Virus record (IMG/VR): IMGVR_UViG_3300010222_000003
Span: 1 to 63,920 of that record
Origin: a virus
Length of the DNA: 63,920 nucleotides
Reading direction: 5' to 3' (one strand)
Made by a program: the position numbers and the translations under genes. Positions 281 through 63,920 of the stretch are shown here, in pieces (within the stretch, counting starts at the first letter, position 1; each line of letters opens with the position of its first letter). The notes beneath the pieces are model-generated. The model was not told the origin of the DNA. It saw nothing but the letters and a program-made list of their open reading frames with translations, and did no database searches.

Positions 281-317
281 AAAAAAGCAGCACCCAGGCG
301 CTACGAAGTAGCGCCTT
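281..317 (-). terminator. Hairpin plus T6 tract after CDS 317-589
   Basis: Minus strand reads GGCGCTAC-TTC-GTAGCGCC, abutting the stop codon, followed by TGGGTGCTGC and TTTTTT. Confidence 0.6.
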
Positions 318-3407: not shown

Positions 3408-3428
3408 GGGCGCTGCGTAGCAGCGCCC
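3408..3428 (-). terminator. T1 hairpin copy (GGGCGCTGC-GTA-GCAGCGCCC)
   Basis: 9-bp GC stem abutting the stop of ORF 3429-3653. Confidence 0.6.
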
Positions 3429-7809: not shown

Positions 7810-8301
7810 TTAAGCGGAGTTAAAATTAGTGTTGATCCAATCGCGAAAATCCGCAACGGCGCGGCAATCGGGACACTGATAGCCAAGCGTCTTGTACGGT
7901 AGCGGTTCACCGACTGCCTGTACTTCTTCTTCTATCTTCGGCTCTAAAGAGCCCACACTGCTGATTTCGTAGTCACATTTCGGACAGCGGTCGTTTGTCT
8001 CTTCTAAGGTCTTGTGACACGAAGCGCAAACCGCCGCCAGGTTTTCGCGAAAATGGCTGTCTTCTTCGGCGTCGAAGTAACGCCGCGGAATCAGGTGATG
8101 AACGTGAAGCCGGCCGACTACAGCACTCGGTTCGTTGCAAAGCCGGCATTCCCAACCCGCAGCTTCTTTTTCAGCAGCGCGTAGCGATTCCCAAGATTCA
8201 GGTTCTGGATCAACCCCATGCTCCGAAAAGCAATGACCCCGCATTCTGGGTTTTGACGGGAAAGTCTTATTGCAAACACGGCATTCGTAACTACCAGGCA
8301 T
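7810..8301 (-). CDS. HNH endonuclease with N-terminal C2H2-like zinc finger
   Basis: YECRVCNKTF...HCFSEH finger, HVHHLIPRR...NLAAVCASCH HNH core, and extra CPKC / CPDC pairs. Adjacent to the terminase genes. Confidence 0.85.
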   Translation of the reverse strand: MPGSYECRVCNKTFPSKPRMRGHCFSEHGVDPEPESWESLRAAEKEAAGWECRLCNEPSAVVGRLHVHHLIPRRYFDAEEDSHFRENLAAVCASCHKTLEETNDRCPKCDYEISSVGSLEPKIEEEVQAVGEPLPYKTLGYQCPDCRAVADFRDWINTNFNSA

Positions 8302-9943: not shown

Positions 9944-9963
9944 GGTTATGTTTTGCGTGTTGC

Positions 9964-10442: not shown

Positions 10443-10461
10443 GGCGCTGCGAAGCAGCGCC
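10443..10461 (-). terminator. T1 hairpin copy (GGCGCTGC-GAA-GCAGCGCC)
   Basis: Abuts the stop codon of CDS 10463-10765. Confidence 0.6.
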
Positions 10462-11147: not shown

Positions 11148-12989
11148 CTACAGTTTAATGTTGCGCAATTCTTGTGCGATTTCTTCGGCGTCAGACGGGT
11201 TCACTTCGTCCCCGTCTACGAAGGCCTGTAGACATTCGGCCGCAGCGTCAACCGATTCCTGAGCCGAACGCCCCCCGTCCGCCGTTATCTCGGTTTGCTC
11301 CGCGTCGATTTCGCCGCCTTCGCCGTCGGGGCCGAAGACCCCATAGTAATCGTTCATGCACTTTTGCCTCTGGTAGTAGGCATCACGGAACGACATGCCG
11401 TTATCTTCGACATCAACGATCATGGCATCGTCCCCGCCACTCGGTCGGAGCGCGCGCCCGATCGTTTGCACGGTTTCGACATCCGACTTCCCGCCGTGCG
11501 CTAAGATAATCGCATTGACTTCCGGCAGGTCAACACCCTCCTTTAGCAGCGTCGAAGCCACAATGTCGATTTCCCCGTCGGCGAAGTCCTGTAGCCGCTC
11601 TTCACGGTTATCGGACTCGGAGGACACAGCTTCGGCAACCGCGTCGGACCCGCGCGCTTCCGCAATCTCGTTTGCAATGTCCGCAATCTGATTTGCGGGA
11701 CTGATCCAGCGCGTGTTGACGATGACCCGGCGGCCAGTCTCCGCTAAGTCAACCGCCTTTTCGGCTATGGCGCTGTTACGAATCTCGGACTCAGCGATAC
11801 AGCGCTTGTAAGCCGTTTGGTAGTGTTCGTGCTTCCCTTCGCGGGTAGGGCCGTCATGGGTGATGCTGTCGAACGCGGGTTTCGCCAGGTAGCCTTTGCG
11901 GATCAGATGCTCGGGTTCAACGCTGTAGACTTCACTACCAACCGCCCCTTCAATCCATAGCTCTTCGGCTTGAACGCGCCGCCAGGGCGTTGCCGAAAGC
12001 CCGATCCGGTAGTGACTCGGGAATAGTTGCCCAACCTTGTGGAACGTATCTGCGGCGCTGGTTCGGTGGCACTCATCGAAGATACTGACGCCGTAGTCCT
12101 CGGGGGCCAGTTCCTTGTCTTCGCCGCCTTCAAGCCCGCGGCTAACAACGCTTTGCATGATCGCCACAGTGACCGGGCCTTCGGACCATTGATCGTCTCC
12201 GATCATGCCGGGTTCAACACCCAAGCAATCGCGGATGTTTTCTGCCCACTGGTATAGCAGTTCCTTGGTGTGGACCCACACGACCGCGCGACGACTAAGG
12301 CGCTGGATCAGGCGCATTGCTACCACGGTTTTACCTCCGCCGGTCGGAATGGCGATAACGCCTTGTTCCTCTTCTTCTGCGGCGTCTACGGCTTCGCGCT
12401 GGTAGTCGCGAAGGTCATGGGAAAATTCCCACGAAAGGGCATGATCGACAGCGGTGCCGCGCGCGCCGCCTTCCGGCCCCAAAACCGTAACACCGAAGCC
12501 GTCAGATTCGAGGATTTCGACCGCACGGTCGATCAGCATGAGCGGCCCCGAACCCGAGCGCCGGAACACGTACTTAGTCCGGGGCGCGCCGGGGTCAAAT
12601 TCGGCTTCGGGGTTCTCGTAACTGAATGCTCGGATCAGCAGGTCGAAGGCATCCTTATAGGCCTCTTGTTCGGATTCCGCCTGATCCAAGTGGAATTGAT
12701 TGCGCTCGGGTTTGCGGACAAGCGTCACGGCACCGGAGCCCGAACTTTCGAACGGTTTGTACTCCGGAGGAATAACCGTATTCAGCGCGTCTTCGATTTG
12801 CTCGTAGGAACGCGGCGAAACGGCAATAGCCCAACTAAAATCATCCAGGTCGTAGTAGGGCTGGTAGCGCGTCACACCCCAGGCCGTTGATTTGACATCC
12901 GACTTCGGAGCGCCTACGATCGCCAGTTTTTCGTCTTTGCTGTACCCATCGTCTTCCGCTTCGACAAACGCAAAGTCGTATTCGGTCAT
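11148..12989 (-). CDS. SF2 DEAD/DEAH-box helicase (XPB/Rad25 or restriction res-subunit type)
   Basis: Motif I IPTGGGKT, motif II IFDECH, motif III GLSATP, motif VI QTIGRALR. Start taken at MTEYDF; an upstream ATG at 13004 is the alternative. Confidence 0.9.
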   Translation of the reverse strand: MTEYDFAFVEAEDDGYSKDEKLAIVGAPKSDVKSTAWGVTRYQPYYDLDDFSWAIAVSPRSYEQIEDALNTVIPPEYKPFESSGSGAVTLVRKPERNQFHLDQAESEQEAYKDAFDLLIRAFSYENPEAEFDPGAPRTKYVFRRSGSGPLMLIDRAVEILESDGFGVTVLGPEGGARGTAVDHALSWEFSHDLRDYQREAVDAAEEEEQGVIAIPTGGGKTVVAMRLIQRLSRRAVVWVHTKELLYQWAENIRDCLGVEPGMIGDDQWSEGPVTVAIMQSVVSRGLEGGEDKELAPEDYGVSIFDECHRTSAADTFHKVGQLFPSHYRIGLSATPWRRVQAEELWIEGAVGSEVYSVEPEHLIRKGYLAKPAFDSITHDGPTREGKHEHYQTAYKRCIAESEIRNSAIAEKAVDLAETGRRVIVNTRWISPANQIADIANEIAEARGSDAVAEAVSSESDNREERLQDFADGEIDIVASTLLKEGVDLPEVNAIILAHGGKSDVETVQTIGRALRPSGGDDAMIVDVEDNGMSFRDAYYQRQKCMNDYYGVFGPDGEGGEIDAEQTEITADGGRSAQESVDAAAECLQAFVDGDEVNPSDAEEIAQELRNIKL

Positions 12990-13040
12990 GGGTTTTCGAC
13001 CCATTTGGGTAGAATACGGGGTAACTAATAAATCTGTCGT
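12987..13040 (-). promoter_or_regulatory. Conserved promoter plus hairpin-leader cassette P1
   Basis: Minus strand reads TTTATTA-N22-TGGGTCGAAAACCC-ATGAC. About 55 nt match 58947-59000 with two mismatches. Confidence 0.65.
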
Positions 13041-13061
13041 TCCGGACTACAGGCCCCGGTG

Positions 13062-14687: not shown

Positions 14688-15560
14688 TTAGCTCTTCGGG
14701 TCTTCGCCGGTCAACCCTTCCTCTTGGATTTGATACAGCACAGTTCGAAGCGTAACCGGATCGACACCACAAACGTCCGCAATTCGCTTCTGAGAAATAT
14801 CGTCCGTGACGAAGTACAGCGCCCCGGCAACGATACCACACGGGTTCCGCCCGTTCTTAAACGATTCATCCAGTTCCTTAGTAATCCGTGTTGCCCGAAG
14901 CCGGGTGTCCGTATCCAGGTCTAACTTCGTTCCGAACCGGCCAACATATTGTTCCGTTGACTGGATCGGTATCGACAAGTCCATTTTGCGGCGAATATAA
15001 TCGACGGACTGTTTAACCCCGCGCGTGTCCGTATTACAAGCTTCGGCTATTTCTTCGTAGGTTCGTGGCACTTCGTTGATCCGCAGCACAATATAGTACA
15101 AACCGGCTACGCTGGCTTCGATAGACCTGCCGCGGAACGTATGTTTATCGGCAACCTGATCGTACAAAGCAATAACCTGATTAACAAATTCGTCGGGGAC
15201 TTCAAGAATCCCGCCGCAGGTCCGCATTTTGTCATAGGCGACGTGGCGCGTGCGGCTAAATTCGTTGTGTTTGGCGCGCTTGTTCAACCGCTTCATACGC
15301 CGCATTTTAAATTCCTCGGTGCCGTCGTACTCGTCCGGATTAAACAGCGTAACGACACCCCGGTCCAAGTGTTGCCGGTTCCGCGGCGGACCGGTTCGCT
15401 TCTTCCGGTCGTTTTCATCAGGGGTAAACGCGCGCCACTCTTCGCCTTGGTCGATATTTACTTTCTCTTCAAGCACCAAACCGCACTCATTACAGTAGTT
15501 CTCATTATCATCAGCAATTACATCCTCAGAACCACATTCGCTACAAGTAAGCTCAGGCAT
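14688..15560 (-). CDS. tfb: Transcription initiation factor B (TFB/TFIIB) homologue
   Basis: N-terminal Zn ribbon CSECG-x15-CNECG, the DQGEEWRAF B-reader-like motif, and two cyclin-like repeats (RGRSIEASVAGLYYIVLR; GRNPCGIVAGALYFV). Confidence 0.9.
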   Translation of the reverse strand: MPELTCSECGSEDVIADDNENYCNECGLVLEEKVNIDQGEEWRAFTPDENDRKKRTGPPRNRQHLDRGVVTLFNPDEYDGTEEFKMRRMKRLNKRAKHNEFSRTRHVAYDKMRTCGGILEVPDEFVNQVIALYDQVADKHTFRGRSIEASVAGLYYIVLRINEVPRTYEEIAEACNTDTRGVKQSVDYIRRKMDLSIPIQSTEQYVGRFGTKLDLDTDTRLRATRITKELDESFKNGRNPCGIVAGALYFVTDDISQKRIADVCGVDPVTLRTVLYQIQEEGLTGEDPKS

Positions 15561-22530: not shown

Positions 22531-22563
22531 CGTCGATCCAGCGTAAACCGCACGCTGGATGGG

Positions 22564-22585
22564 GCGTTGAATGCTTATTCAGCGC
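22564..22585. repeat. T2 palindrome copy 2 (degenerate: GCGTTGAAT-GCTT-ATTCAGCGC)
   Basis: One arm carries a mismatch. Lies between element B and the next gene. Confidence 0.7.
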
Positions 22586-22616: not shown

Positions 22617-22720
22617 GGCCCTGAGTGCCTGCGCTCAGGACAAGGCGGCAAAGCTTTCTGGTTCGTTGCCTCGAAATCTGGGAACCAGATTCCCCTTTCT
22701 TGTAGCAACCAAAATCGACC
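22617..22720 (-). repeat. Structured intergenic element, copy B (5'-truncated)
   Basis: Keeps the core, core hairpin (22673-22693) and right arm. Lacks the AT box, hairpin 1 and left arm. Confidence 0.85.
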
Positions 22721-30264: not shown

Positions 30265-30942
30265 ATGAAAGACGAATACAAAGACGCGCGCGTGTTGCAC
30301 TACTTAATTGTTAAGAAAGGGTTTTCGCAGCAGAAGGCTTCTGATATAATTGGGTGTTCGCGTGGAAACGTTAGATATTGGAAAAACAAGTTAGGAATCG
30401 AAAAGCGGAAAGATTACGCTGATCCCCGCGTGCTTCAATATCTAATTCGCGATTGTGATATGAGCGCACAGAAAGCTTCTGAAATAATAGGGTGTGATCA
30501 GGCTACGGTTTGGAATTATGCGCAAGAATTTGGCATAGAACGCCGCGAAATGTGGCGCGACCCCCGCGTTTTACATCACCTGTATGTTCGCCGCGGGTTT
30601 TCTATGACAGAATGCGCTGATATTTTGGAAACCTCATACGGTAATGTGCAAAAAGGGATGTATGAATGCGATATTGAACCGAGAAAAAGGCCTCGGGACT
30701 TACTGCCAGTTTTGCACATGGATAATGGTTATGAGGTTTTTTACCAGGATTATAGTATAATCCAGCATCATCGTCTTCATTTCTATGCTGTTAACCAAGA
30801 TATTGATCTTGAAGAAATGAATGACAAAGAGGTTCATCACAAAAACGGAATAAGATACGACAATCGATCTGAAAACTATGAACTGTTAACTAAGGCAGAA
30901 CATAGTTCAAAACACACTCATTCTACTAAGGAAAAAGTTTAA
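30265..30942 (+). CDS. Free-standing HNH homing endonuclease with three tandem HTH repeats
   Basis: Three ~40-aa repeats (D[AP]RVL[HQ][YH]L... IIGC...) and a C-terminal EVHHKNGIRYDNRSENYELLTKAEHSSKH. Visibly AT-rich, opposite strand to its neighbours. A TTTATC box lies about 27 nt upstream. Confidence 0.85.
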   Translation: MKDEYKDARVLHYLIVKKGFSQQKASDIIGCSRGNVRYWKNKLGIEKRKDYADPRVLQYLIRDCDMSAQKASEIIGCDQATVWNYAQEFGIERREMWRDPRVLHHLYVRRGFSMTECADILETSYGNVQKGMYECDIEPRKRPRDLLPVLHMDNGYEVFYQDYSIIQHHRLHFYAVNQDIDLEEMNDKEVHHKNGIRYDNRSENYELLTKAEHSSKHTHSTKEKV

Positions 30943-35534: not shown

Positions 35535-35598
35535 AGGACTTAGTGTGTAGGTTCACGCCTTTAATCTCGGTGCGCTCCGTGTGCTGCTTCGCCGCGCA

Positions 35599-35838
35599 CT
35601 ATACGCGTTCAATGCGGTCAAACGCCGCGTCAACCAGAATAGAAAAGGCGTAGTCAGTGCGGCCGACTTTGTTTTCCTGCGCTTGTGTATACATGACATC
35701 TAACACCGCGTCGGGATAATCGCCTTCCCAAGTCCATCCAGTGCCTTTGCGCACTGCTGTCGGTTCATCCGCACTCGGGTCTTGTGTCTGATCCCACAGT
35801 TGCAAACCGTCGGCAGTGATAGTCCAATACCAAGTCAT
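35599..35838 (-). CDS. Small hypothetical tail-module protein
   Basis: Start moved to MTWYWTITADG, just after the upstream stop at 35843. Confidence 0.5.
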   Translation of the reverse strand: MTWYWTITADGLQLWDQTQDPSADEPTAVRKGTGWTWEGDYPDAVLDVMYTQAQENKVGRTDYAFSILVDAAFDRIERV

Positions 35839-37822: not shown

Positions 37823-38566
37823 TTAGCAGAAGGGTTTTTCGGCTTTCTCTTCGGGTGAAAGATCAGGGTGATCCCATTTATACCCGTAGCCCGGCGGTGG
37901 GTTGCCCATATACCGCAAGAACTTAGCGGTTTCTTTGGTGCTAAACCTAATTCTTAACCACTTTTCACCTTCATTGACACCTGTGTTATACACACCTTTA
38001 GTAAAACTGGGATTAAAAACACTTTGTTTAAAAATATTGCGTACCCTGCTGGAAACAGAGTACTGCCCACAAGCAGCAATTTTAGCACGCGGGGTCCGGG
38101 ACCGGCTATTAGTATAACACAAACTTCCGTCGCCAGAGTACCACGCTTTAAGAAAAACCGGCGAAGGTTTCAACCCCTTTGGAAACTTTTTTCCACCGCG
38201 TTTTTTGTACCACCGCTTTGCTATTTCGTCAAAAAACGGATGCGTTTTTGTTTGCCAACTATACAAAATTTTATCTCTATTTTTGTAACGCCGATTGTTT
38301 GTTTCGGTTGGTTTGCCTAACGAAAACTGACAAAAAGCGCGATCTAAGTCTTCAAGATAAGCTTTTCCGGATTTCCCTGCCATTCTAACTCTTAAATAGG
38401 GAAGCCTTTTTGTTTTCCATACTTTTTCTAACCCGCCGTCGCCTGCTAATTCTCCGACTACACGGTTTTTCAGACGGTTAGGCAGGTTGGGGTAACTACA
38501 TTCAGACAGGGCATAATGATGATTAACGCTTTTAAACTCTTTACCGCAGGCATGGCACTGATCCAT
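37823..38566 (-). CDS. Free-standing double-motif LAGLIDADG homing endonuclease
   Basis: VVGELAGDGGLEK and LKAWYSGDGSLCY motifs about 100 aa apart, plus an N-terminal CHACGK...H finger. Visibly AT-rich relative to the flanks. Confidence 0.8.
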   Translation of the reverse strand: MDQCHACGKEFKSVNHHYALSECSYPNLPNRLKNRVVGELAGDGGLEKVWKTKRLPYLRVRMAGKSGKAYLEDLDRAFCQFSLGKPTETNNRRYKNRDKILYSWQTKTHPFFDEIAKRWYKKRGGKKFPKGLKPSPVFLKAWYSGDGSLCYTNSRSRTPRAKIAACGQYSVSSRVRNIFKQSVFNPSFTKGVYNTGVNEGEKWLRIRFSTKETAKFLRYMGNPPPGYGYKWDHPDLSPEEKAEKPFC

Positions 38567-44659: not shown

Positions 44660-44916
44660 CGGCACCACAAAAGCACTTTAGCGACGAAGAACGAACCGAC
44701 ACGGAATTAGCCCAAATCGCGGCGGCCGGCGGTGTCAAAGAACGCCGCACTCTGGCGTTCCGGTACGAACGCGCCCGGCGAAAACGGCGCGCCACGACCG
44801 GGGTCGAAGCGGACCGGGTAGATAACCGCGCGGAGAACTTAGCGAAGCTCTTAGATCGGGTGCATCGGATCTTCGCCGAAAAGAAGGCCCGGCGTCGCGA
44901 AGCAGAAGTGCGCTGA
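44656..44916 (+). CDS. Hypothetical highly charged protein (cassette gene 2)
   Basis: 86 aa, Arg/Glu/Lys-rich. ATGA overlap with gene 1. Its stop codon lies inside a T2 palindrome. Confidence 0.55.
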   Translation: MTAPQKHFSDEERTDTELAQIAAAGGVKERRTLAFRYERARRKRRATTGVEADRVDNRAENLAKLLDRVHRIFAEKKARRREAEVR

Positions 44917-44933
44917 ATAAACATTCAGCGCAC
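44908..44933. repeat. T2 palindrome copy 3 (GTGCGCTGAAT-AAAC-ATTCAGCGCAC, perfect)
   Basis: 11-bp perfect arms containing the stop codon of CDS 44656-44916. Confidence 0.9.
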
Positions 44934-46618: not shown

Positions 46619-46639
46619 GTGCGCTGCGTAGCAGCGCAC
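46619..46639 (-). terminator. T1 hairpin copy (GTGCGCTGC-GTA-GCAGCGCAC)
   Basis: Perfect stem, located between element C and the major tail gene start. Confidence 0.55.
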
Positions 46640-46667: not shown

Positions 46668-46691
46668 TGCGCTGAATAAACATTCAACCCA
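46668..46691. repeat. T2 palindrome copy 4 (degenerate: TGCGCTGAAT-AAAC-ATTCAACCCA)
   Basis: Two mismatches in one arm. Confidence 0.7.
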
Positions 46692-46728
46692 CGGAACAAA
46701 GCACCAAGGCTACGGGCCTGAGTACCGC

Positions 46729-46908
46729 GGTCATTAGAAACCGGCAATCTTTTCTGGTTCGTTACGCAGGATTTTGTTGCCCTGATTCCCTCTTCTTGTA
46801 GCAACAAAATCTGGCGTAATTACCCGGAAGCCTTTGCCGATAGATTAACGAAACCGGCTCGTTAGGTCCTGTGCCGCCAAAGTAGTAGTAATTAATCTGG
46901 TAGGTTGG
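46729..46908 (-). repeat. Structured intergenic element, copy C
   Basis: AT box 46880-46908. An 11-bp stem (46770-46780 / 46801-46811) encloses the core. Hairpin 1 is degenerate. Extra shared GGCCTTGCTT with copy D upstream. Confidence 0.9.
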
Positions 46909-46938
46909 CAAAAGCAAGGCCAGATGCCTGCGAACCCC

Positions 46939-48635: not shown

Positions 48636-48661
48636 GTGCGCTGAATGTTTATTCAGCGCAC
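48636..48661. repeat. T2 palindrome copy 5 (GTGCGCTGAAT-GTTT-ATTCAGCGCAC, perfect)
   Basis: Sits exactly between the convergent genes 47960-48634(+) and 48662-49012(-). Confidence 0.9.
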
Positions 48662-54174: not shown

Positions 54175-56106
54175 CTAATCTGATCCTCCTACGGAATTGA
54201 ATAGGGCGTGCTGCGCTATAAAGGTAGTTAACCGCTCTTCAAACTCTTCGCGCTCAGCTTCGAAGTCCCGATCATTGCCGCTGTCTTCGTCCGCAGCGCC
54301 GTCATGAATTACCGAGCCCCCCCGTTCGATCCGCAGGCCCGACAAGTCGCCTTCGTAACTCAAATCAGCGCCCGGGTCAATACGGAAGAGCCCATCCGAG
54401 TTACCAACCCACACCATTCCACCGGCCTGCTGGCCGTCGGGTTTGACGTAATCCGTGTCCGAAGCCGACTGATCCCCGTCGTAGTACATTCGGCCGCCGG
54501 AACACGCAAATTGATACCCGCGGGCTGTCCCATCGATGTCCTCCGATTCAATGGCAAACGCTTCAAGCACTTCGGCGTCTTCGGGAATCGTCGATTCGCC
54601 GCCGATTTCATCAATATCTACTTCGTCCCCATCGATCCGGACCGTAACCGGGTTATCAGCGTTAAACTCGGTGATTTCGCCAGTGTACGCGAAGGGGTCC
54701 TGTCCGAAACCGCCGCGTACCAGGCCTTCGACGCCCTTCATGTCGGGCATAATGCTGTCCGTACTTCCGAGCGGTTCGCCGCCCTCCGACGGCGGAATAA
54801 TCTGCCCGGATACACGGAAGTCGTAATTAGCATCCTGATCCGAGTCTACAATAACTTCGATCAGGTGGGTTTCCTGCGGGTCCGGCTCCGGTTCGGGCTC
54901 AGGCTCCGGTTCGGGCTCCGGTTCGGGCTCCGGTTCGATAACCTCGGTTTCGACCGGTATCGGCTGTCCGTTCAACCGCACACTGACGTTTTCCAGGCCC
55001 GCTTCGGTGCCGCGAAGGCGCACGTTATTGATATGCGGGTCGTGTTCGCTGATGACAGTGTATACGTCAGTGCCGCCTTCGACTTTCCCGGTAGCACTGT
55101 GTTCATCCTCAGCGATTTCGTCCCCATCACCGATGTTCGTCCGTTCCGTAGCTTTGACCCACCCCGAAACGTCTACCCAGTAGCGTACGACCTCCGAGGA
55201 ACCGCCCTCATCGTCTACGACAAAGCGGTGTTCACCGTCATTCTGTGCCGAGCCATAGCCCTGGCCCTTCGCCGCTTGTTCGGCATTCATCGGCACCCCT
55301 TCCGGCGGCGTCGGGTCCGGGTTCGAATCATACGACCCGTTTACCGTGGGTTCTTCCCACGTATCCATGTCCTCCGGGTCGCCGCTACCGCGGTGTGGCG
55401 GCGTAAAGATGTCCTGGCCGGCGTCGATGCTAACGTTCGACCCCAAGGTCACGTCCGGAACCTTCGGCAGAAGCTTCGCGTTATCTTCGTCATGGTCTCC
55501 GACCTGGATACCCTTGCCCGAATCCACAATGTCGATATTTTCGAGGTAGGTTCCCTGGCCGTACAAGTTCGCAATTGCTTTGACCCCACCAACCACGGTA
55601 ACGTTCTTTAGTTCGCAGTTATCAGCACCGACACGAAGGCCATACCCATCACAGTCGCGAACATAGACGCTATCACACCGGAAGATCCCCTGGCCGCCGG
55701 GCGTCTTCGGCCAGGCCACGTCCGCATTGCCCGGCGGAGACCCGTATAAACCGTGTGCGTCATGAATCGGACCCGGATAGTTCGTCGGACCCAAACTAAC
55801 GTTCTCAAAGATCAGTTCACCCTTATGCCGGGCGTTTACGAAACCGCCATGCGAAGTCAGTCCATCACCGACGTAAACATTCCGAACCAGCGTGTAGGCG
55901 TCTTCGTTGAAACAGCCGAAGTAGAAGATCCGCCCGTTATCATCGGGTACGGGGCCTTCGATACCGACGTTTTCGATCGTAGCATTCGGAGCGCGCGCGT
56001 CGATTTTAACACGTTCACCTTCGGCATAGATTTCCTTGTGGCCCCACGTTTCGCCAGGGCTCAGAGTATACTCGTATTCACCGCGGATAACTTCGTGTTC
56101 GGGCAT
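54175..56106 (-). CDS. Right-handed beta-helix (pectate-lyase-fold-like) protein with (EP)n linker
   Basis: 643 aa. The N-terminal half has repeated ...NV.V.G / ...ENV... beta-helix-like rungs, followed by [22 protein letters not shown] and a C-terminal domain. Confidence 0.6.
   Translation of the reverse strand: [643 protein letters not shown]
54881..54937. repeat. Tandem 6-nt repeat (GGCTCC/GGTTCG units) encoding the (EP)n linker
   Basis: Read directly: ...tccggctccggttcgggctcaggctccggttcgggctccggttcgggctccggttcg... Confidence 0.85.
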
Positions 56107-56132
56107 AGTCTGACGTGCTGAGCGCTACGCCC

Positions 56133-56369
56133 TTAATATTCCGACTTCGGCTTGGGGAATGCCCCAAGCCATGAGCGAACGAAATTGAACGCGACCCCCT
56201 GCGCTTCCCGAACGTTATGATCAGCCCCGTATGCCTTCCGGACACGATAGCCCGTGAAGGCAGGCTTAGCAGGCCCGCGGCGGGGAACCGACCGACGCAC
56301 GTTAGGGAAGACGATGAACCTACGCCACGCCGGCAAATTACAGTACATCGGCGGCGTATATAAACCCAT
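56133..56369 (-). CDS. Basic 78-aa ORF, doubtful
   Basis: No family recognised. A strong TTTATATA box lies inside its first codons, so the region may instead be the promoter/5'UTR of the head operon. Confidence 0.3.
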   Translation of the reverse strand: MGLYTPPMYCNLPAWRRFIVFPNVRRSVPRRGPAKPAFTGYRVRKAYGADHNVREAQGVAFNFVRSWLGAFPKPKSEY

Positions 56370-56417
56370 TGGTCCGCTACGAAGTAGCGGACAGGGGCCT
56401 TGCTTAGTTGGTTATTG

Positions 56418-56589
56418 CCGACCTACCAGATTAATTACTACTACTTTGCGGACTCAGGGCCTGAGTCCGCATTTTAGTTAATCTACCGGCAAAAGCTTCT
56501 GGGTAATTACGCCAGTTTTTGTTGCTACAAGAAGAGGGAATCAGGGCAACGAAAACCAGTGTAACGAACCAGAAACCTTTGCCGGTTCC
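56418..56589 (+). repeat. Structured intergenic element, copy D
   Basis: AT box 56418-56446, hairpin 56448-56470, and core enclosed by stem 56515-56525 / 56546-56556 (one U-G). Confidence 0.9.
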
Positions 56590-56590
56590 T

Positions 56591-56610
56591 GTGCGCTGCT
56601 GCGCAGCGCA
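56591..56610 (+). terminator. T1 hairpin copy (TGCGCTGC-TGC-GCAGCGCA) followed by TTT
   Basis: Immediately 3' of element D. Confidence 0.55.
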
Positions 56611-56619
56611 TTTGGTCCC

Positions 56620-56645
56620 GTGCGCTGAATAAACGTTCAACGCAC
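56620..56645. repeat. T2 palindrome copy 6 (GTGCGCTGAAT-AAAC-GTTCAACGCAC, degenerate)
   Basis: Two mismatches in the right arm. Confidence 0.75.
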
Positions 56646-56701
56646 ATGCCTGCGCTTCGCCGCCGCTTTTTTACCTTCCCGTGCGCTATGTAATAGCGCA
56701 C

Positions 56702-57187
56702 ATGCACTACGAAGGACACGCCGGGGCAACGCTACTACTGTATTCGGCCGGGTGGATCGGAGCAACATTACTGGAATACAGGCCGTCGGGCTGGATGCTC
56801 GGGGCGCTACTCGGTTGGGCATTACTCTGCGGCGTTGCCCCCGATATAGACAGTTACGTCAAAAACCAGTACTTGGGACACCGGACCGCAGCGCACACAC
56901 TTCTAACACCCCTGCTACTCGGTGCTGTCGGGTTTTTACTATTCGACACGGCAGGGCAGGGCTTCGGGATCGCCGCGGCACTGACGGCCTACAGCGCCGT
57001 TGTGTTGCACCTGGCGGTCGATACGATCAACCCGGCCGGAATCCCCTGGCTCTTCCCGCTAAACTTCCGCCGCTACAGCGCCCCCGAGCGCTTACAAGTA
57101 GACGCCACCAACCGCACGGCCAACCTTGTACTGTTTACAAGCGGCCTGATCGGCTTCGCCTTTGCGCTTGGGTACTGGGTTGTTTGA
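56702..57187 (+). CDS. YdjM-like membrane-bound metal-dependent hydrolase
   Basis: MHYEGHAG..., GVAPDIDSY, HRTAAHT, and several TM helices. Start taken at the ATG about 30 nt after a TTTTTTA box; the ORF track starts at GTG 56681. Confidence 0.65.
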   Translation: MHYEGHAGATLLLYSAGWIGATLLEYRPSGWMLGALLGWALLCGVAPDIDSYVKNQYLGHRTAAHTLLTPLLLGAVGFLLFDTAGQGFGIAAALTAYSAVVLHLAVDTINPAGIPWLFPLNFRRYSAPERLQVDATNRTANLVLFTSGLIGFAFALGYWVV

Positions 57188-57205: not shown

Positions 57206-57226
57206 GTGCGCTGCTGCGCAGCGCGC
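57206..57226. terminator. T1 hairpin copy between convergent genes
   Basis: GTGCGCTGC-TGC-GCAGCGCGC, between 56702-57187(+) and 57227-57469(-). Confidence 0.6.
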
Positions 57227-57469
57227 TTAGTGCTTCGAAATTGCCGGCCGCTCTTCCTTTTTCGCCCGGTGGTAGACGACACAGAAGATCCCTGCGGCCT
57301 GTAGCGACATGGCTACGGCGCTAAGAAACAGCGCGCCAGGGAAGCCGATTCCGAGATACAAGAGCGCCAAGAAGACGCCTGCTGGAAGCACCAAGTACAG
57401 GACTGTCAGTGCGGCCATTGCCAACCACGTCCCTGCTATCATACGCAGGTCGTTCGGGGTTAAGCTCAT
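57227..57469 (-). CDS. Membrane protein, hypothetical
   Basis: Start moved to MSLTPNDLR, giving an ATGA overlap with the upstream gene. Two or three TM helices. Confidence 0.55.
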   Translation of the reverse strand: MSLTPNDLRMIAGTWLAMAALTVLYLVLPAGVFLALLYLGIGFPGALFLSAVAMSLQAAGIFCVVYHRAKKEERPAISKH

Positions 57470-57732
57470 TCGTTGCCCCCGTAGACTTTCGGGTCCGTGT
57501 TTTTCGAGAACCGCCGAGCTTCGCGTTCTGCCGCCCGGACTTCGTTGAGACCATTCGCGCGGCTGTGTTCCATGCCCCACATTCGGACCGCGTGACCAAG
57601 AATCTCTGCCTGCGCCGCCAGGACTCGGTTCTGGCGGTCAATCGCCGCAGTGTTTCGGTCCATGGCCTCAGCTAACATGATCATTCCGTCCGGTTCTTCT
57701 GCCGCAGCGCCGTATTCGTCGGCTTCGTTCAT
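57466..57732 (-). CDS. Hypothetical protein
   Basis: 88 aa, preceded by promoter/leader cassette P3. Confidence 0.55.
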   Translation of the reverse strand: MNEADEYGAAAEEPDGMIMLAEAMDRNTAAIDRQNRVLAAQAEILGHAVRMWGMEHSRANGLNEVRAAEREARRFSKNTDPKVYGGNE

Positions 57733-57778
57733 GGGTTTTCGACCCAGTTGCCTAAAACAACGGCAAAGTAATAAACGC
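57730..57778 (-). promoter_or_regulatory. Promoter plus hairpin-leader cassette P3
   Basis: Minus strand reads TTTATTA-N22-TGGGTCGAAAACCC-ATGA. The leader is identical to P1/P2 while the spacer differs. Confidence 0.55.
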
Positions 57779-57804
57779 TTCGACCTGAGCCGAAGACTCA
57801 GGTC

Positions 57805-58575
57805 CTACGGCTCGTCGGCAACGGTACGGGGAACCGGAGCCACTGACGGACCTGGACCGCCAGAAACCACACCGCCAAATCCGCCGTCATTCGGACCGAA
57901 ACACGCCAAAAGCTGCGGGCCTTCTTCAAGCCGGTTGATATACAAGTCCGACGAACCGCATTCACACCGGCTTCCCGAACCCGCTTCCGCGGCTTCGAAG
58001 AACCGAACGGTCCTGTTACGCTGTTTCGGGTAACAGACGTACGGACAGTCCCGGCAGCCACACTTGAAGTGGGGCAAATGCTTCCCTTCGTACCGGTCCA
58101 TGTCGCTACAGCCGTGCGCCTTCCCCAACCACACAAACCGGGGGGTGTGAACGTGCGGAAGCCCCTGAATATGCAGATGGGAATGTATCAGTTCGTGCCT
58201 GATCGTTTCGCATATCTCGGACCATGTGCTCCGTTCCCGATGGATGTACTGGCGCTTCAACTTAATGTGACTACAGCGCCGCCGGCCATTATCCGAGTCA
58301 TGGCGCGGGCAGGCTACCGCCTTCGACCGCTTCAAACGGCCAGTAACTTCAAACGACACCCGATCCAGCGGAACATCCAGCAACCGGGTCTCCGACAAGA
58401 ACCAGGTGGCGTAATCGGAAACAGCGCCGGAAACAACCCGGTCGGACACGTCATTCGCCCCGTCAACCCCAGGGTTTGACCCCCGAACACCGGGTTCGAA
58501 GCCCCTGTGTTCGGTGGCGTATTGCTCGGGTGGGGCGTTGCCGGCCGAAACCCGGGCCGCCAGGTTCCCGTTCAT
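57805..58575 (-). CDS. SprT-like zinc metalloprotease
   Basis: HELIHSHLH (HExxH) plus C-terminal Cys pairs (CGCRDCPYVC ... CECGSSD). Start moved to MNGNLAARV (ATGA coupling). Confidence 0.6.
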   Translation of the reverse strand: MNGNLAARVSAGNAPPEQYATEHRGFEPGVRGSNPGVDGANDVSDRVVSGAVSDYATWFLSETRLLDVPLDRVSFEVTGRLKRSKAVACPRHDSDNGRRRCSHIKLKRQYIHRERSTWSEICETIRHELIHSHLHIQGLPHVHTPRFVWLGKAHGCSDMDRYEGKHLPHFKCGCRDCPYVCYPKQRNRTVRFFEAAEAGSGSRCECGSSDLYINRLEEGPQLLACFGPNDGGFGGVVSGGPGPSVAPVPRTVADEP

Positions 58576-58949
58576 TGTTCTTCCTCTTCGTCTCCGCCGA
58601 CTTGGGTCCAAACGGTAGCTTTCCCGCCGACCAACCAGGGCGACGATTCCGTATCCATCCCGTCAGAAGCGCGAACGGTGCCGCAGTCGGTAAACACTTT
58701 GACTCGGTGGTATTCCTCGGGGAAGTTCGTGGGTTCTTCTTCGAGTGCAACCAACTTGTGACCCCACTCGGGGTTTACTGCGTGTTCTTTCGCCGGCAGG
58801 CAAACAACCAACTCTTCGGTCATTTCGCGGGTCCCGTCGGGTTTTTCGTAGCTAATCCGAACGGGGTCGCCGCCCTCAAATTCGCGTTTAAACGCTTCAC
58901 TATCCAATTCGACAGCACGCCATTCGGCCGCAGGGTTTTCTTCCGTCAT
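58572..58949 (-). CDS. Hypothetical acidic protein
   Basis: Start taken at MTEENPAAE, directly after the conserved GGGTCGAAAACCC leader. Confidence 0.55.
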   Translation of the reverse strand: MTEENPAAEWRAVELDSEAFKREFEGGDPVRISYEKPDGTREMTEELVVCLPAKEHAVNPEWGHKLVALEEEPTNFPEEYHRVKVFTDCGTVRASDGMDTESSPWLVGGKATVWTQVGGDEEEEQ

Positions 58950-59000
58950 GGGTTTTCGACCCACTTGGGTAGAATACGGGGTAACTAATAAGTCTGTCGC
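58947..59000 (-). promoter_or_regulatory. Promoter plus hairpin-leader cassette P2
   Basis: Near-identical to 12987-13040 (two mismatches in about 55 nt by eye). Confidence 0.65.
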
Positions 59001-59019
59001 TTTGGTCTAATCCGCTGGC

Positions 59020-60153: not shown

Positions 60154-60234
60154 CGTTTTACCTCGTATAAACTGGCGGGCCGGAAGCGTTTAAGCCTGCC
60201 GCCTTAAACGCGGAACCACAGCAGCGAAGAACGT

Positions 60235-60317
60235 GTCAACCAAGATCAGCTAACGTTAGACATAGCTGGTTGACGTATCAGCTAACTTTACGAAACGGTT
60301 TCGTTTAGCTGTTTGAC
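60235..60317. promoter_or_regulatory. Cluster of short repeats (GTCAAC / CAGCTAAC units) and a 15-nt palindrome in the divergent control region
   Basis: GTCAACCAAGATCAGCTAAC ... AGCTGGTTGAC GTATCAGCTAAC ... ACGAAACGGTTTCGT ... TTAGCTGTTTGAC, read directly. Confidence 0.5.
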
Positions 60318-60363
60318 ATGCGCCTTATAAACTGCCGGCAGAGGCCCGACGACATTGCTATTG

Positions 60364-60543
60364 CCGACCTACCAGATTAATTACTACTACTTTGGGGCCT
60401 TAGGCACTAAGGCCCCGGTTTCGTTAATCTACCGGCAAAGGTTTCTGGCTTATCAGGCCCATTTTGGTTGCTACAAGAAGAGGGATTCTGGTTCCCAGAA
60501 TCCGAGTCTATGAACCAGAAACTTTTGCTGGTTTCTAATGACC
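60364..60543 (+). repeat. Structured intergenic element, copy E (reference copy)
   Basis: AT box 60364-60393, hairpin 60394-60416, left arm 60431-60448, core 60461-60479, core hairpin 60483-60503, right arm 60514-60532. Confidence 0.9.
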
Positions 60544-60605
60544 CCGGTACTAAGCCGGCGGCGAAGAAGTTATAATCCGCGCGCTTCCAAAGGTAGTGTA
60601 GAACT

Positions 60606-61172
60606 ATGATGGAACCGATCGAAATACCCGACGACCCCAAACGCGCTGCGGAGGAACTGGCATTGCCGCGCCCGTACAAACAAATACAATACCGCCAGGT
60701 TGCGCCGTTTGAAGGCGAAAGGCTCCGCAAAAAGGCGGCATTGGCGCGTGCTATCATGTCAGAAACGGCAGCGCCGCGCGGTTTAACCACCGTCAGAACC
60801 GCCGTCGAAGGCGATCCGACCAACACACTGACGAAAGACTCGGCACACTACCTATTACAAGAAGACTTCCGTGGGTTGGAACCTGTAGAATCCGGACCAC
60901 ATTCACAGGCAGGGGCGGATGTATACGCTGTTTACGACCCCGCCGGCCCCGAAGTCTTAGCGCTCTTGTGCCGTTTATACAAAACGCTGCGGCGTTACGA
61001 AGTTAGTGAAATCACCGTCAAAGAAACTATCATCCAGAACTACGGCGTCGATCCAGCGCACGGCTCTAAAATCTTCGACACTGCGATCCGCGTCCCGCGG
61101 TATGGCGACTTTCTCCTTTTCGACCGGAAACCGCAGATACAACCGTTTGACAGCGGAAAATTCGGTCCGTAG
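60606..61172 (+). CDS. Hypothetical protein
   Basis: 188 aa. A TTATAA box lies about 30 nt upstream. The stop codon overlaps a T1 hairpin. Confidence 0.6.
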   Translation: MMEPIEIPDDPKRAAEELALPRPYKQIQYRQVAPFEGERLRKKAALARAIMSETAAPRGLTTVRTAVEGDPTNTLTKDSAHYLLQEDFRGLEPVESGPHSQAGADVYAVYDPAGPEVLALLCRLYKTLRRYEVSEITVKETIIQNYGVDPAHGSKIFDTAIRVPRYGDFLLFDRKPQIQPFDSGKFGP

Positions 61173-61192
61173 TGCGCTGCGAAGCAGCGCAC
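61172..61192 (+). terminator. T1 hairpin copy (GTGCGCTGC-GAA-GCAGCGCAC)
   Basis: Perfect stem overlapping the stop of CDS 60606-61172. Confidence 0.6.
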
Positions 61193-61227
61193 GGAACCTT
61201 TTTATGACGCCGGCAGGTTATAATAGT

Positions 61228-61779
61228 ATGGCCCTGAGCAACGAAAACCAGCGTAAGACGTACGCCCCGATGATTACCGAACCTGTCGGCAGGGGCGTCG
61301 CTATGGCGGACGAAGAAAGCCCCCCTGGCGAAGGCAACTGGATCGACTTGGTGCGCCGGCTTCAAATTTTTCAGGGCGGCATGTCTCCGCTATCCTGGAA
61401 ATGGTACGCCGAAGACGTACCGCCGCGTACCGGGTCTATCGACATTAACACCGTACACCGTCATAGCAACCGCATGGCTACCGAGGACATTGTAACAGTC
61501 GATAGTCTCGGAAGTCATGCCCGCACGCCTGATTACGAGTTAACGCGGGTTGGGAAGGGCTATGCAACGGCGCTGCTGTACCGCTATAGCAAAACGTTGA
61601 AAACTAACCCGTACGCCGGCCTGCTGTCGGACTCGGAAGTAAACAAGTTATACGCGGAACACATGGGGATCGACCTGCCGCGACTGTCCGAGCGCCTTAC
61701 CGATCCAACCGTGAAAAAGCACTACCCACTGCGGAAACTGCGGCTTCCCGACGCCGCGTTTGATCAGTACGGAATCTAA
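61228..61779 (+). CDS. Hypothetical protein (start 61228 or 61204)
   Basis: The longer ORF from 61006 overlaps the previous gene. MALSNENQ follows a CTTTTTATGA box by about 26 nt. Confidence 0.55.
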   Translation: MALSNENQRKTYAPMITEPVGRGVAMADEESPPGEGNWIDLVRRLQIFQGGMSPLSWKWYAEDVPPRTGSIDINTVHRHSNRMATEDIVTVDSLGSHARTPDYELTRVGKGYATALLYRYSKTLKTNPYAGLLSDSEVNKLYAEHMGIDLPRLSERLTDPTVKKHYPLRKLRLPDAAFDQYGI

Positions 61780-61796
61780 GCGCACAGTCGGAGACT

Positions 61797-61822
61797 GTGC
61801 GCTGAATAAACATTCAGCGCAC
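61797..61822. repeat. T2 palindrome copy 7 (GTGCGCTGAAT-AAAC-ATTCAGCGCAC, perfect)
   Basis: Shares its GTGCGC 5' arm with a second hairpin, GCGCACAGTC-GGA-GACTGTGCGC (61780-61802). Confidence 0.9.
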
Positions 61823-61865
61823 ATGCCAAACGCCTAAGTGCGGCGGGTTCATCAATAAAGCTGTA

Positions 61866-62348
61866 ATGTCCGACGACCCCGACAAACCCGACGACCCCGC
61901 CACGTTCTACGAAGGGACAGCGCAGCGCTTTTGCGAAGACGTGCTAAACGCTGATTACACAATCGGCGAAATCGACGCACAGGAAAGCGTCGTTCGCGAA
62001 GAAATCCAAGAGCTACACGAAGCAATCGGACAGTTGACCTTTGCCGCAAAGAAGGACTTGTCCGGAGATCCACAATCAGACACGCACCTGCTATCCGAAG
62101 CGCTACACGAGAAAGCGCAAACCATGTCCCTGGATGAAATCGAACGCCAAAGCGATAGTGAAGGCGAAATCACGGCTAAACGCCCGGCGGTTGCGGAAGA
62201 AGCCGCCGACGCGCTGATTACGGTTCACGTCTTGTGCGAACTGATCGGCATAGACGTGGCTCAGGCGTACCAGGACAAGATGCAATACAACCTAACGAAA
62301 TCCGGCCGCACTGACGAGAACGGAAAGGTCATAGACGATGGGGGCTAA
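61866..62348 (+). CDS. MazG-like nucleoside triphosphate pyrophosphohydrolase
   Basis: 160 aa. EEIQELHEAIGQ and EEAADALITVHVL...YQDKMQYNLTK acidic-helix motifs. Confidence 0.7.
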   Translation: MSDDPDKPDDPATFYEGTAQRFCEDVLNADYTIGEIDAQESVVREEIQELHEAIGQLTFAAKKDLSGDPQSDTHLLSEALHEKAQTMSLDEIERQSDSEGEITAKRPAVAEEAADALITVHVLCELIGIDVAQAYQDKMQYNLTKSGRTDENGKVIDDGG

Positions 62349-62369
62349 GCCCGCAGCGAAGCTGCGGGC
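62349..62369 (+). terminator. Hairpin GCCCGCAGC-GAA-GCTGCGGGC abutting the MazG stop
   Basis: 9-bp perfect stem. Confidence 0.55.
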
Positions 62370-62476
62370 AATAAGGTGTTCACATACGTACCCACCACGT
62401 TCATTTGGTTCAACCTTGTAGGCGAAAGCGTAGCGTAAGACGCTACAGGATAGCAAACCCGGTGCTAACAGAACCC

Positions 62477-62953
62477 ATGCGCATAAGTACCAAAGACGTG
62501 TACGCCTTAACCAGGAACCAGAAGTTCAACGGGCGTACATTTCGCGAAGGCGAAGAGATACCCGTTACCCACAAACAAATAGCTGAGCGGCTACAGGAAC
62601 ACGGGTTCATCGGAGACGTGACCCGTGTCGAGAACCGCGGGCGCGGCAACGACTATTACGCGCCACTGACTCGACTCGGGGCGGAGCTAATCAACCAGTG
62701 GGAACCCGAACACTTCCGGTTTATCGGCCGGCGCGCTGGCAATTACGTTGCATACGTCCGGAAGAACATCGACCATGAACACACGTTTGCGAACGTTGAA
62801 GCGCTACAGTTCGCGGAAGACGGCAGCGGCCTGATCGTTCGCGGAGCGTGTGAAATCTGCGGCGAAGACGCCGAACGCCGCATTACGGACCCGGAGGAAG
62901 CGGCCGATGTTCTGGCGTCGGAGCCTGCGGGATCAGAAGCAATCACCGCGTAG
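62477..62953 (+). CDS. Hypothetical protein
   Basis: Start taken at MRISTKDVYAL. The longer ORF N-terminus is Arg-rich and unlikely to be real. Confidence 0.55.
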   Translation: MRISTKDVYALTRNQKFNGRTFREGEEIPVTHKQIAERLQEHGFIGDVTRVENRGRGNDYYAPLTRLGAELINQWEPEHFRFIGRRAGNYVAYVRKNIDHEHTFANVEALQFAEDGSGLIVRGACEICGEDAERRITDPEEAADVLASEPAGSEAITA

Positions 62954-62986
62954 CGCCTAAAGACTTATACCCGCGCCGCGGTTTTT

Positions 62987-63316
62987 ATGAAGTGTAGTAT
63001 GAGCGAAGCATTGAACGACCCGTTGCAAAATTTGCCAGGCGAAAGCGGCGTGTACGAATGCGTCAAAGCCGAATACGAAATCACACTATCGACCGACTGT
63101 AGTAGCCGGCTTCATATACACACCCCCGACGGGCAACTGACGGTGCCGGTCGAAGAGCTACAGTTAGAAGAACTGGATCGGACTGTCACTGTTAGTCATA
63201 GTGATGCTACCATGTTCCAAGTTATCGAATCCGACGGGCGGATGTTCGTGCAAATCCATCGGAACGGAGACACGGGCAAAAGCGGCGGGGCAGAAGCGAC
63301 GCTGGTTAGCCGTTAG
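62987..63316 (+). CDS. Hypothetical protein
   Basis: 109 aa. Its end overlaps a convergent gene by 11 nt. Confidence 0.55.
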   Translation: MKCSMSEALNDPLQNLPGESGVYECVKAEYEITLSTDCSSRLHIHTPDGQLTVPVEELQLEELDRTVTVSHSDATMFQVIESDGRMFVQIHRNGDTGKSGGAEATLVSR

Positions 63317-63584
63317 TGTCCGCTGGTTCGGCACTGGCTGTAGCTTCCTGAATCCGCGTGTGCCATTCCTGCGGGCCTTGCGGCGCGTTTTGGGCTACCA
63401 GGACAACGTATAGGTCGTCGGTTTCTTCGTGGTTGATTTCGTCGGCATACGACATAGCGGCCGCTCCGAAGTACTCGTCTGAATCGTAGATGCTGAGCGC
63501 TTCTTGTTTCGCCTGTTTTTCGGTGTCGGCTTCTACGAACACGAACGGGTTTGCGATCATTTCGACGCTGGCTACTTCGGCCAT
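63306..63584 (-). CDS. Hypothetical acidic protein
   Basis: Start moved to MAEVASVEM, preceded by GGAGGAAGATT (Shine-Dalgarno-like). Confidence 0.55.
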   Translation of the reverse strand: MAEVASVEMIANPFVFVEADTEKQAKQEALSIYDSDEYFGAAAMSYADEINHEETDDLYVVLVAQNAPQGPQEWHTRIQEATASAEPADTNG

Positions 63585-63615
63585 AATCTTCCTCCGTTCG
63601 CGGTTTGGAAAAAAG

Positions 63616-63798
63616 TTACGGGTCGCTGCGAAGCTGCTTCCGAAGGCGTTGTATCTTACGGCGCACTTCTGCCGTTTGTTCCCCCGCTTTCGTTGCATCT
63701 GTCCCTGAATTTACGCCCGAATTTAACGCATCGGCGGCGTCGATGTACTGTAGCCTCGGAAACGCCGGCCTGTCGTAATCGGTTATCCTCGTATTCAT
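63616..63798 (-). CDS. Hypothetical 60-aa protein
   Basis: Start moved to MNTRITDYD, because the longer ORF N-terminus translates element A. Upstream TTTTTATCCGCGCGCTTC matches the segment upstream of 60606. Confidence 0.5.
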   Translation of the reverse strand: MNTRITDYDRPAFPRLQYIDAADALNSGVNSGTDATKAGEQTAEVRRKIQRLRKQLRSDP

Positions 63799-63862
63799 AG
63801 TGTTAGTCTTCGCTCCAGTTGCCTCAAAGAAGCGCGCGGATAAAAAGACAGCGCTCAGGTGC

Positions 63863-63920
63863 GGGTCATTAGAAACCAGCAAAAGTTTCTGGTTCATAGA
63901 CTCGGATTCTGGGAACCAGA
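63863..63920. repeat. 58-nt terminal overlap identical to positions 1-58 (circular closure)
   Basis: Compared base by base and found identical. Confidence 0.95.

Follow-up and report, generated by a model that had tools for sequence, protein, structure and literature searches.

Does a structured intergenic element, followed by a series of hairpins and then by a gene, act as a switch that decides how far transcription proceeds? The question is raised by a locus, termed region D here, in a viral DNA of 63,920 nucleotides (nt) (IMG/VR record IMGVR_UViG_3300010222_000003, positions 1 to 63,920; hereafter the window). In the direction of transcription, region D consists of one copy of a ~180-nt intergenic repeat (element D), a hairpin (T1), a palindrome (T2), a T6 tract, and a third palindrome (P3), directly followed by the ATG of a gene for a YdjM-family membrane protein (Table 1). 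The initial annotation had proposed that this arrangement serves attenuation or antitermination control or, alternatively, that the element is a separate small RNA gene whose terminators are the hairpins. All the feature coordinates that it claimed in region D were verified in the sequence, and the three hairpins preceding the plus-strand gene are genuine and well above chance. The first proposal was not borne out: we found no alternative pairing, no conserved order or spacing of the hairpins, no Rfam match, and a promoter-like box before the ATG. Our favored reading, for which our confidence is evenly balanced, is that region D brings together modules of three kinds, each independent of the others, and is not one switch.

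We looked for complementarity of at least 7 nt between element D (56398 to 56590) and the sequence that follows it (56591 to 56701) and found none. No antiterminator pairing is therefore apparent, and the defining feature of an attenuator is missing; element C and its hairpins share a single 7-mer complementarity, attributable to chance. Comparison of the five copies of the element (A to E) revealed that the layout is not conserved, since the hairpins lie upstream of the element at A (T1, T6, T2, element, promoter-like block, gene), are missing at E (element, promoter-like block, gene), and are in reverse order at C (element, degenerate T2, T1, TATA-like box, tail-sheath gene). At B, a fragment of the element is followed by a degenerate T2, an unrelated hairpin, and the gene. 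The claim that the same logic appears after copies C and B was thus correct as to the presence of hairpins, but not as to their order at C or the identity of the second hairpin at B. The element had no match in Rfam at the gathering threshold, and its sole match at an E-value threshold, to a plant microRNA precursor, was spurious and caused by the long hairpin of the element. Region D therefore resembles attenuators and riboswitch leaders in that a structured conserved sequence and stem-loops precede a gene, but differs from them in its lack of antiterminator pairing and of an Rfam match, its unconserved geometry, and the promoter-like box in between. Between 56100 and 57300, on the plus strand outside the YdjM coding sequence, the sole bacterial-type terminator-like site is a hairpin inside the element (hairpin 1); after T1 at D there is just TTT, and after T2 and P3 no U tract, short of a bacterial-type intrinsic terminator.

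We then examined whether the hairpins are particular to the element. Our catalogue contains 21 palindromes (13 of the T1 type, 7 of the T2 type, and P3), all of them in non-coding DNA, which makes up 11.7% of the genome. About 10 begin 0 to 18 nt past a stop codon (e.g., at 10443, 26161, 35570, 46939, 48636, 57206, 61172, 61797, and 62349). The T1 consensus, GTGCGCTGC-GAA-GCAGCGCAC, has a 9-bp GC-rich stem and a 3-nt loop, and changes on both sides were seen at 9 of the 9 stem pairs of the family with the geometry kept constant; T1 members were chosen as hairpins, so their high pairing is partly by construction, and the informative part is the shared geometry with varying sequence. P3 carries two compensated stem changes relative to the T1 type. 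Perfect hairpins of at least 8 bp number 41 in the genome versus 1 to 4 in shuffled sequence, and 29 of the 41 fall in the non-coding fraction. The T2 copies adjoining B, C, and D are imperfect in all three cases (at D by one C·A mismatch and one G·U pair), while the four T2 copies elsewhere (228 to 252, 44908 to 44933, 48636 to 48661, and 61797 to 61822) are perfect. Most palindromes have no T run of their own, and the T runs found after them coincide with the TATA box of the next gene; four palindromes are clearly followed, after 5 to 7 nt, by a T-rich TATA-like box that lies ~30 to 36 nt before the next ATG. T1, T2, and P3 are generic gene-boundary palindromes with properties like those of bacterial repetitive extragenic palindromic (REP) sequences, and they are not specific to the element. 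The likeness to REP sequences lies in their size (19 to 26 nt), multiple copies, extragenic and often post-stop location, variability between strains, and compensatory stem changes; the differences are the setting (a 64-kb archaeal virus), a copy number of ~20 rather than hundreds, and the absence of a RAYT-type transposase among the proteins scanned.

Two further ideas about these palindromes were set aside. The motif AATAAAC in the T2 loop might have made T2 a promoter; this is disfavored, as one T2 copy lies between stop codons that are probably convergent and T-rich boxes are found nearer the ATGs. A strand bias of CGAAG loops among the hairpins with 3-nt loops, independent of gene direction, was dropped because the counts on the plus strand (7 CGAAG versus 2 CTTCG, or 9 versus 3 when CGTAG is counted) are not significant. 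The loop center GCGAAGC presumably matches an unusually stable DNA mini-hairpin.

The palindromes could instead be double-stranded DNA sites for a viral regulator that recognizes GTGCGC/GCGCAC half-sites, activating or forming a roadblock where they lie 5' of a TATA box and repressing the YdjM gene at P3. Such arms are common to T1, T2, P3, and the palindrome at 35570 to 35599, and GTGCGC-N3-25-GCGCAC has 8 exact matches versus 0.26 expected; the recurrent 5- to 7-nt gap to the next TATA box also suits bound proteins, as does the placement of P3 between a TATA box and an ATG, the classical archaeal operator position. The spacing of the half-sites, however, varies from 9 to 18 nt, and many members swap the arms for others (GGGCGC, AGGCGC, GTCCGC, or GCCCGC) with pairing kept, which argues for selection for structure rather than sequence. 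We consider this explanation improbable.

The YdjM gene is indeed isolated, as had been claimed, being alone on the plus strand between minus-strand blocks. The N terminus of its product, MHYEGH, presumably resembles the start of Escherichia coli YdjM, which makes the ATG at 56702 the probable true start; a homologue search with the protein returned one near-identical variant and no others. Genome-wide, among genes with an intergenic gap, the most AT-rich upstream 8-mer is commonest at −39 to −30 from the ATG, and CTTTTTTA falls in this bin, so that the TATA-like box noted close to the ATG stands at the distance usual in this genome. The simplest explanation of the T6 tract is that it serves the YdjM gene as a TATA box, and by analogy with T-stretch terminators, it could double as the strongest archaeal-type stop for upstream transcripts. 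P3 would span the predicted transcription start, in an archaeal operator position. In the archaeal tailed virus HF2, the TATA box of a promoter lies ~26 to 30 nt ahead of the start site (PMC8707807); the same spacing predicts a start ~5 to 9 nt before the ATG, within the 3' arm of P3, in which case P3 is not a complete hairpin in the YdjM mRNA. By this predicted start, the gene seems near-leaderless.

Terminator studies in haloarchaea bear on the hairpins and on the T6 tract alike. In a Haloferax volcanii reporter, termination reached 59% at a hairpin, compared with 95% at a T-stretch (PMC7237163). The T6 tract is similar to the latter, efficient motif, and a hairpin upstream of a 3' end can be a partial terminator; in contrast to haloarchaeal terminators, most palindromes of the window have no T run of their own. 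A leaky series is mechanistically possible on these grounds, and conditional read-through would have a transcript that starts from or before the element meet T1, T2, and P3 as successive leaky terminators, with a viral or host factor or the fold of the element deciding whether it reaches into the YdjM gene. An element with hairpins does precede genes at B, C, and D, and the virus has its own transcription factor B (TFB), but mutually exclusive pairing was not found, the hairpins differ in order and identity from copy to copy, and copies A and E lack the layout. Moreover, the T2 copies beside elements are decaying, the same hairpins follow ~10 ordinary stop codons, and the box at the commonest promoter distance before the ATG would itself, as a T6 tract, terminate transcription (PMC7237163). 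Since the hairpins occur genome-wide and the gene apparently has its own promoter, a read-through switch is unlikely, and we give it little credence.

The YdjM gene is flanked on both sides by the same unusual T1 subtype, with a TGC loop. As it is also the sole plus-strand gene between minus-strand blocks, it looks like a moron-type cassette. The morons of lambdoid phages are gene cassettes made autonomous by a promoter and a terminator of their own. Like them, the YdjM-like accessory gene is isolated and opposite to its neighbors, with its own TATA-like box and flanking hairpins of one subtype; unlike them, it stands in an archaeal setting, and its promoter and terminator activities are predicted.

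We then analyzed the element itself. A search of the genome with nhmmer found exactly five copies, of which four are full and one is a 3' fragment. All five are intergenic, co-oriented with the next gene, and located where a run of co-directional genes begins, at 50 to 290 nt from the ATG and with a further TATA-like box beside the gene. The full copies share an invariant 27-nt core and are only 74 to 88% identical outside it, which indicates selection on the core. It holds a TATA-like motif, ATTAATTA, and a conserved Y-AGG is found ~26 nt downstream, at the top of hairpin 1. The stem of hairpin 1 differs in every copy with its pairing kept (RNAalifold reported 5 pairs changed on both sides among the four copies), and TTT or TTTT comes after the hairpin. 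In the longer hairpin 2, the apical part is of two types (D and C versus A, E, and B); one clear swap of a compensatory kind distinguishes D from C in this hairpin. Fold stability compared with shuffled sequence gave z values of −8.1 for D and −5.8 for E. At A and E, the repeat runs on through a shared promoter-like block, TWTAWTCCGCGCGCTTC, before unrelated proteins. That the element codes for a protein was rejected, as the copies do not share their reading frames and the changes in hairpin 1 are compensatory instead of preserving codons.

The closest known analogue of the element is found in the promoter-carrying intergenic repeats of HF2 and other members of Haloferacalesvirus, a resemblance of function and position only. 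The HF2 repeats were experimentally shown to be promoters (PMC8707807). Like them, which lie in a haloarchaeal myovirus-type genome, the element is intergenic and multicopy and points toward downstream genes at the 5' ends of transcription units (PMC8707807), its most conserved block holds an AT-rich TATA-like motif, and the genome contains, as HF2 does, a second class of repeat, which is shorter here. Unlike them, it measures ~180 nt (versus 58 and 29 nt in HF2; PMC8707807), has no sequence similarity to them (the HF2 beta motif, CTTTAAGT, is absent), and includes two hairpins, one covarying and the other 100 nt long, and its promoter activity is only predicted. By analogy with these repeats, we infer that the core may be a promoter.

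The positions, copy numbers, covariation, and variability described above are properties of the genome; we propose the following functions for the parts. Element D would be a promoter or regulatory cassette, or a short structured transcript, at the start of a transcription unit, and its invariant core would be a B recognition element (BRE)/TATA-like block, possibly recognized by the virus TFB. T1 and T2, as transcript hairpins, would cap 3' ends or terminate transcription in a leaky manner and insulate the next gene from upstream transcription; because palindromes work in both directions, the insulation would extend to antisense read-through. The third module would be the YdjM-like gene with its own promoter, in which T6 would serve as TATA box and T-stretch terminator, and P3 would be a further T1-type palindrome placed over the transcription start, in operator position.

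Several points weigh against this proposal. Promoter and terminator activities were assigned to the parts from sequence alone, and the element, at three times the length of the HF2 repeats, has no sequence in common with them. The main weakness is that, if the core is a promoter, the start would be expected at the conserved Y-AGG, inside hairpin 1, which would leave the covariation of its stem unexplained; this is also what argues most for an RNA with a start further upstream. T1 begins 2 nt after the end of element D, much as T1 palindromes begin 0 to 2 nt after stop codons, a position that fits a transcribed element. Most of the palindromes, having no T run of their own, are not classical terminators, and the GTGCGC...GCGCAC arms that they have in common could mean recognition by a protein.

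One alternative is that the element is a separate gene for a small non-coding RNA, present in 4 to 5 paralogous copies, with the YdjM gene expressed independently. A TATA box ~26 to 30 nt upstream would drive its transcription, the 27-nt core would be a single-stranded seed, hairpin 1 with its U run would be a terminator, either internal or the first to be met, and the final 3' hairpins would be T1 and T2. TATA-like boxes are found 26 to 30 nt before the conserved TTGCT at the 5' boundary in C and E; in D the distance is 42 nt, and the sole candidate upstream of the boundary of copy A is the T2 loop. The covariation of hairpin 1 across the four full copies, the TTT or TTTT after it, the very stable folds, and the placement of T1 2 nt past element D, as past stop codons, agree with a small RNA. 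The strand preference judged from G-U pairs, on the other hand, is inconsistent (D and C are more stable as antisense and E as sense), and this way of assigning the strand was rejected because the copies disagree. Nor do T1 or T2 follow copies A and E; we found no complementary target of at least 10 nt in the viral genome, no matching Rfam family, and no homologue elsewhere for an independent check of the covariation. We regard a small RNA gene as rather unlikely. The corresponding part of the initial annotation fared better than attenuation insofar as it saw a separate upstream unit and a gene with its own TATA box; the hairpins are generic palindromes of the genome and not the element's own terminators.

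Comparison with relatives of the virus revealed that the palindromes are variable. A strain 97% identical to ours (L004) has a 34-nt insertion directly after the YdjM stop codon (L004 457 to 490 versus 57188), which carries an additional T1 hairpin that is the reverse complement of the hairpin at 3408 to 3428, and also substitutions in the loop and stem of the hairpin at 57206. A more distant relative with 61% sheath identity (L014; ENA contig k119_143141) has a GC-rich palindrome family of its own, GCGTTCGCGC...GCGCGAACGC, which differs in sequence and is likewise located directly after stop codons (e.g., at 4393 to 4415, 6417 to 6437, 9930 to 9952, and 12746 to 12769). No such hairpins were found in three other relatives (L015, L001, and L002). 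At the sheath locus, the intergenic region measures 380 nt in the window, where it contains copy C and its hairpins, versus 55 to 70 nt in relatives with 60 to 63% sheath identity.

These differences bear on the possibility of selfish mobile DNA without a role in expressing the adjoining genes; the element and the small palindromes would then be akin to miniature inverted-repeat transposable elements (MITEs), palindrome-associated transposable elements (PATEs), or REP sequences. Element C and its hairpins are an insertion relative to three related viruses, copy B is truncated, a T1 hairpin has been gained or lost between close strains, and assemblies break at copies of the element. Alignment of the copies with their flanks, however, disclosed no terminal inverted repeats and no duplications of the target at the element boundaries, the ends being fuzzy, and no transposase, RAYT, or IS200-type protein was found among ~60 proteins scanned against Pfam, which covered the small open reading frames (ORFs) only partly. 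The element motifs are absent from the 185,579 genomes searched, and the invariant core, which implies selection, and the co-orientation of all five copies with the downstream gene are not expected of selfish DNA. We hold this to be very unlikely.

Searches elsewhere gave no homologue of the element outside this virus. An exact search with 20 nt of the core gave no match in viral, metagenome, or genome collections, and the second conserved motif had none as a plain 22-mer in viral contigs or, when given a fixed gap of 32 nt, in genome contigs. When 15 retrieved loci were scanned with an nhmmer profile of the element, all matches were to contigs of the same virus. T2 was not found in viral contigs, and a T1 17-mer gave 8 single matches there, probably by chance. 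A search for related loci with the 643-amino-acid (aa) protein encoded next to region D (54175 to 56106, minus strand) identified no equivalent of region D in relatives; as a homologue query, this protein had no match even to itself, its low-complexity repeats having probably flooded the candidates. A search for region D equivalents by capsid alignment found none in metagenome contigs, and the loci in viral contigs end before the region.

TABLE 1 Positions of region D features, copies of the repeat, and related features in the window
Feature	Position(s)	Strand	Remarks
TATA-like box TATATAAAC	56358-56366		Upstream of element D; read from sequence, putative function
T1-type palindrome GTCCGCTAC-GAA-GTAGCGGAC	56372-56392		Upstream of element D
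Element D	about 56398/56413-56590	+	Copy of the ~180-nt intergenic repeat; repeat search, alignment, nhmmer
27-nt core ACCTACCAGATTAATTACTACTACTTT	56421-56447	+	Invariant in 4/4 full copies
Hairpin 1, GCGGACTCAGG-GCC-TGAGTCCGC	56448-56475	+	Then TTTT
Hairpin 2	56486-56585	+	Imperfect, long; exactly 100 nt in 4/4 full copies
T1, TGCGCTGC-TGC-GCAGCGCA	56592-56610		Then TTT at 56611-56613
T2, GTGCGCTGAAT-AAAC-GTTCAACGCAC	56620-56645		Degenerate copy
Probable TATA box of YdjM gene, CTTTTTTA	56666-56673	+	Starts at −36 from ATG
T6 tract	56667-56672		
P3, GTGCGCTAT-GTA-ATAGCGCAC	56681-56701		Abuts ATG at 56702; T1-type, 9-bp stem, 3-nt loop
YdjM-family membrane protein gene	56702-57187	+	PF04307, E = 7e-15
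T1 palindrome	57206-57226		Between convergent stop codons of YdjM gene and 57227-57469 (−)
Element A	1-181	−	
Copy A hairpins	T2 228-252; T1 296-316		Upstream of element A; T6 run between them
Element B	22632-22720	−	3' part only
Copy B hairpins	degenerate T2 22564-22585; unrelated hairpin 22534-22562		
Element C	46718-46917	−	
Copy C hairpins	T1 46619-46639; degenerate T2 46668-46693		Between element C and tail-sheath gene
Element E	60355-60554	+	
Second intergenic repeat class, ~80 nt	12969-13049; 57712-57792; 58929-59009		Directly upstream of three ATGs
TFB gene	14688-15560	−	TFIIB repeat, E = 7e-16; N-terminal zinc ribbon

The window is a metagenome contig of the Joint Genome Institute, and Logan assemblies of run SRR2630167 hold the same genome, fragmented at the repeat copies. 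Bases 1 to 58 are an exact repeat of 63863 to 63920, so that the genome is either a 63,862-bp circle or a terminally redundant molecule. It contains genes for a tape-measure protein, a family B DNA polymerase, a helicase, and a large terminase. The terminase shows 31% identity to its counterpart in Halogranum tailed virus 1, and comparison with deposited phage records revealed no DNA similarity. Taken together, the gene set, the terminase match, and the lack of a DNA match to phages point to an uncultured tailed virus of the haloarchaeal type.

The viral TFB is a candidate reader of promoters peculiar to this virus, and it could define a promoter class of its own. The second class of intergenic repeat precedes the ATGs of the helicase gene (11148 to 13004) and of the genes at 57466 to 57732 and 58572 to 58949. 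It has a conserved TTTATTAG box ~44 to 52 nt ahead of the ATG and a conserved leader that ends in GGGTCGAAAACCC-ATG.

Other features were observed around the copies of the element. The ~250 nt 5' of element D (56107 to 56357) contain no convincing gene; a 78-aa ORF (56133 to 56369, minus strand) is arginine rich, which is atypical for a haloarchaeal protein, and overlaps a TATA-like box. The 643-aa protein encoded beyond this stretch has acidic low-complexity repeats and a weak PARP-like match. Copies A (1 to 181) and E (60364 to 60544) are inverted repeats with 88% identity over 181 nt, including 58 identical nt, and bracket a 3.3-kb segment of convergent genes (60545 to 63862); they could permit inversion of the segment or confuse assembly. 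The terminal overlap of the contig falls inside copy A. The non-coding sequence 5' of copy E (60166 to 60338) may be a regulatory or origin region; it contains the iteron-like ATCAGCTAAC twice, 32 nt apart, as well as GTCAACCA/TGGTTGAC, and TATAAACTGSCGG at 60166 and 60326. Elsewhere in the window, three genes of the homing-endonuclease type (two HNH and one LAGLIDADG), at 30265 to 30942 (plus strand), 7810 to 8301 (minus strand), and 37823 to 38566 (minus strand), are interspersed with structural and replication genes, and in one relative, an HNH-like ORF is inserted immediately 5' of the sheath gene.

To our knowledge, the control of transcription in tailed viruses of archaea has hardly been explored, HF2 with its repeated intergenic promoter cassettes being the one well-studied case. 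The practical message of our analysis is a negative one: the "cascade" of hairpins in region D is best read as boundary punctuation beside the gene's own promoter and not as a riboswitch-like device. A bolder proposal, which we consider unlikely, is that the element is a virus-specific expression cassette, composed of a promoter read by the viral TFB and a structured leader or small RNA, that heads five transcription units, with the REP-like hairpins, P3 included, acting as leaky stops or factor-binding sites in a manner dependent on the stage of infection. If true, this cassette would be the archaeal-virus counterpart of phage antitermination and promoter-class timing. The virus appears to combine a large structured repeat with a TATA-like core, a second class of promoter repeat, REP-like boundary hairpins, and its own TFB. 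If the viral TFB reads the repeat, this would provide a simple system for promoter-class switching by an archaeal virus.

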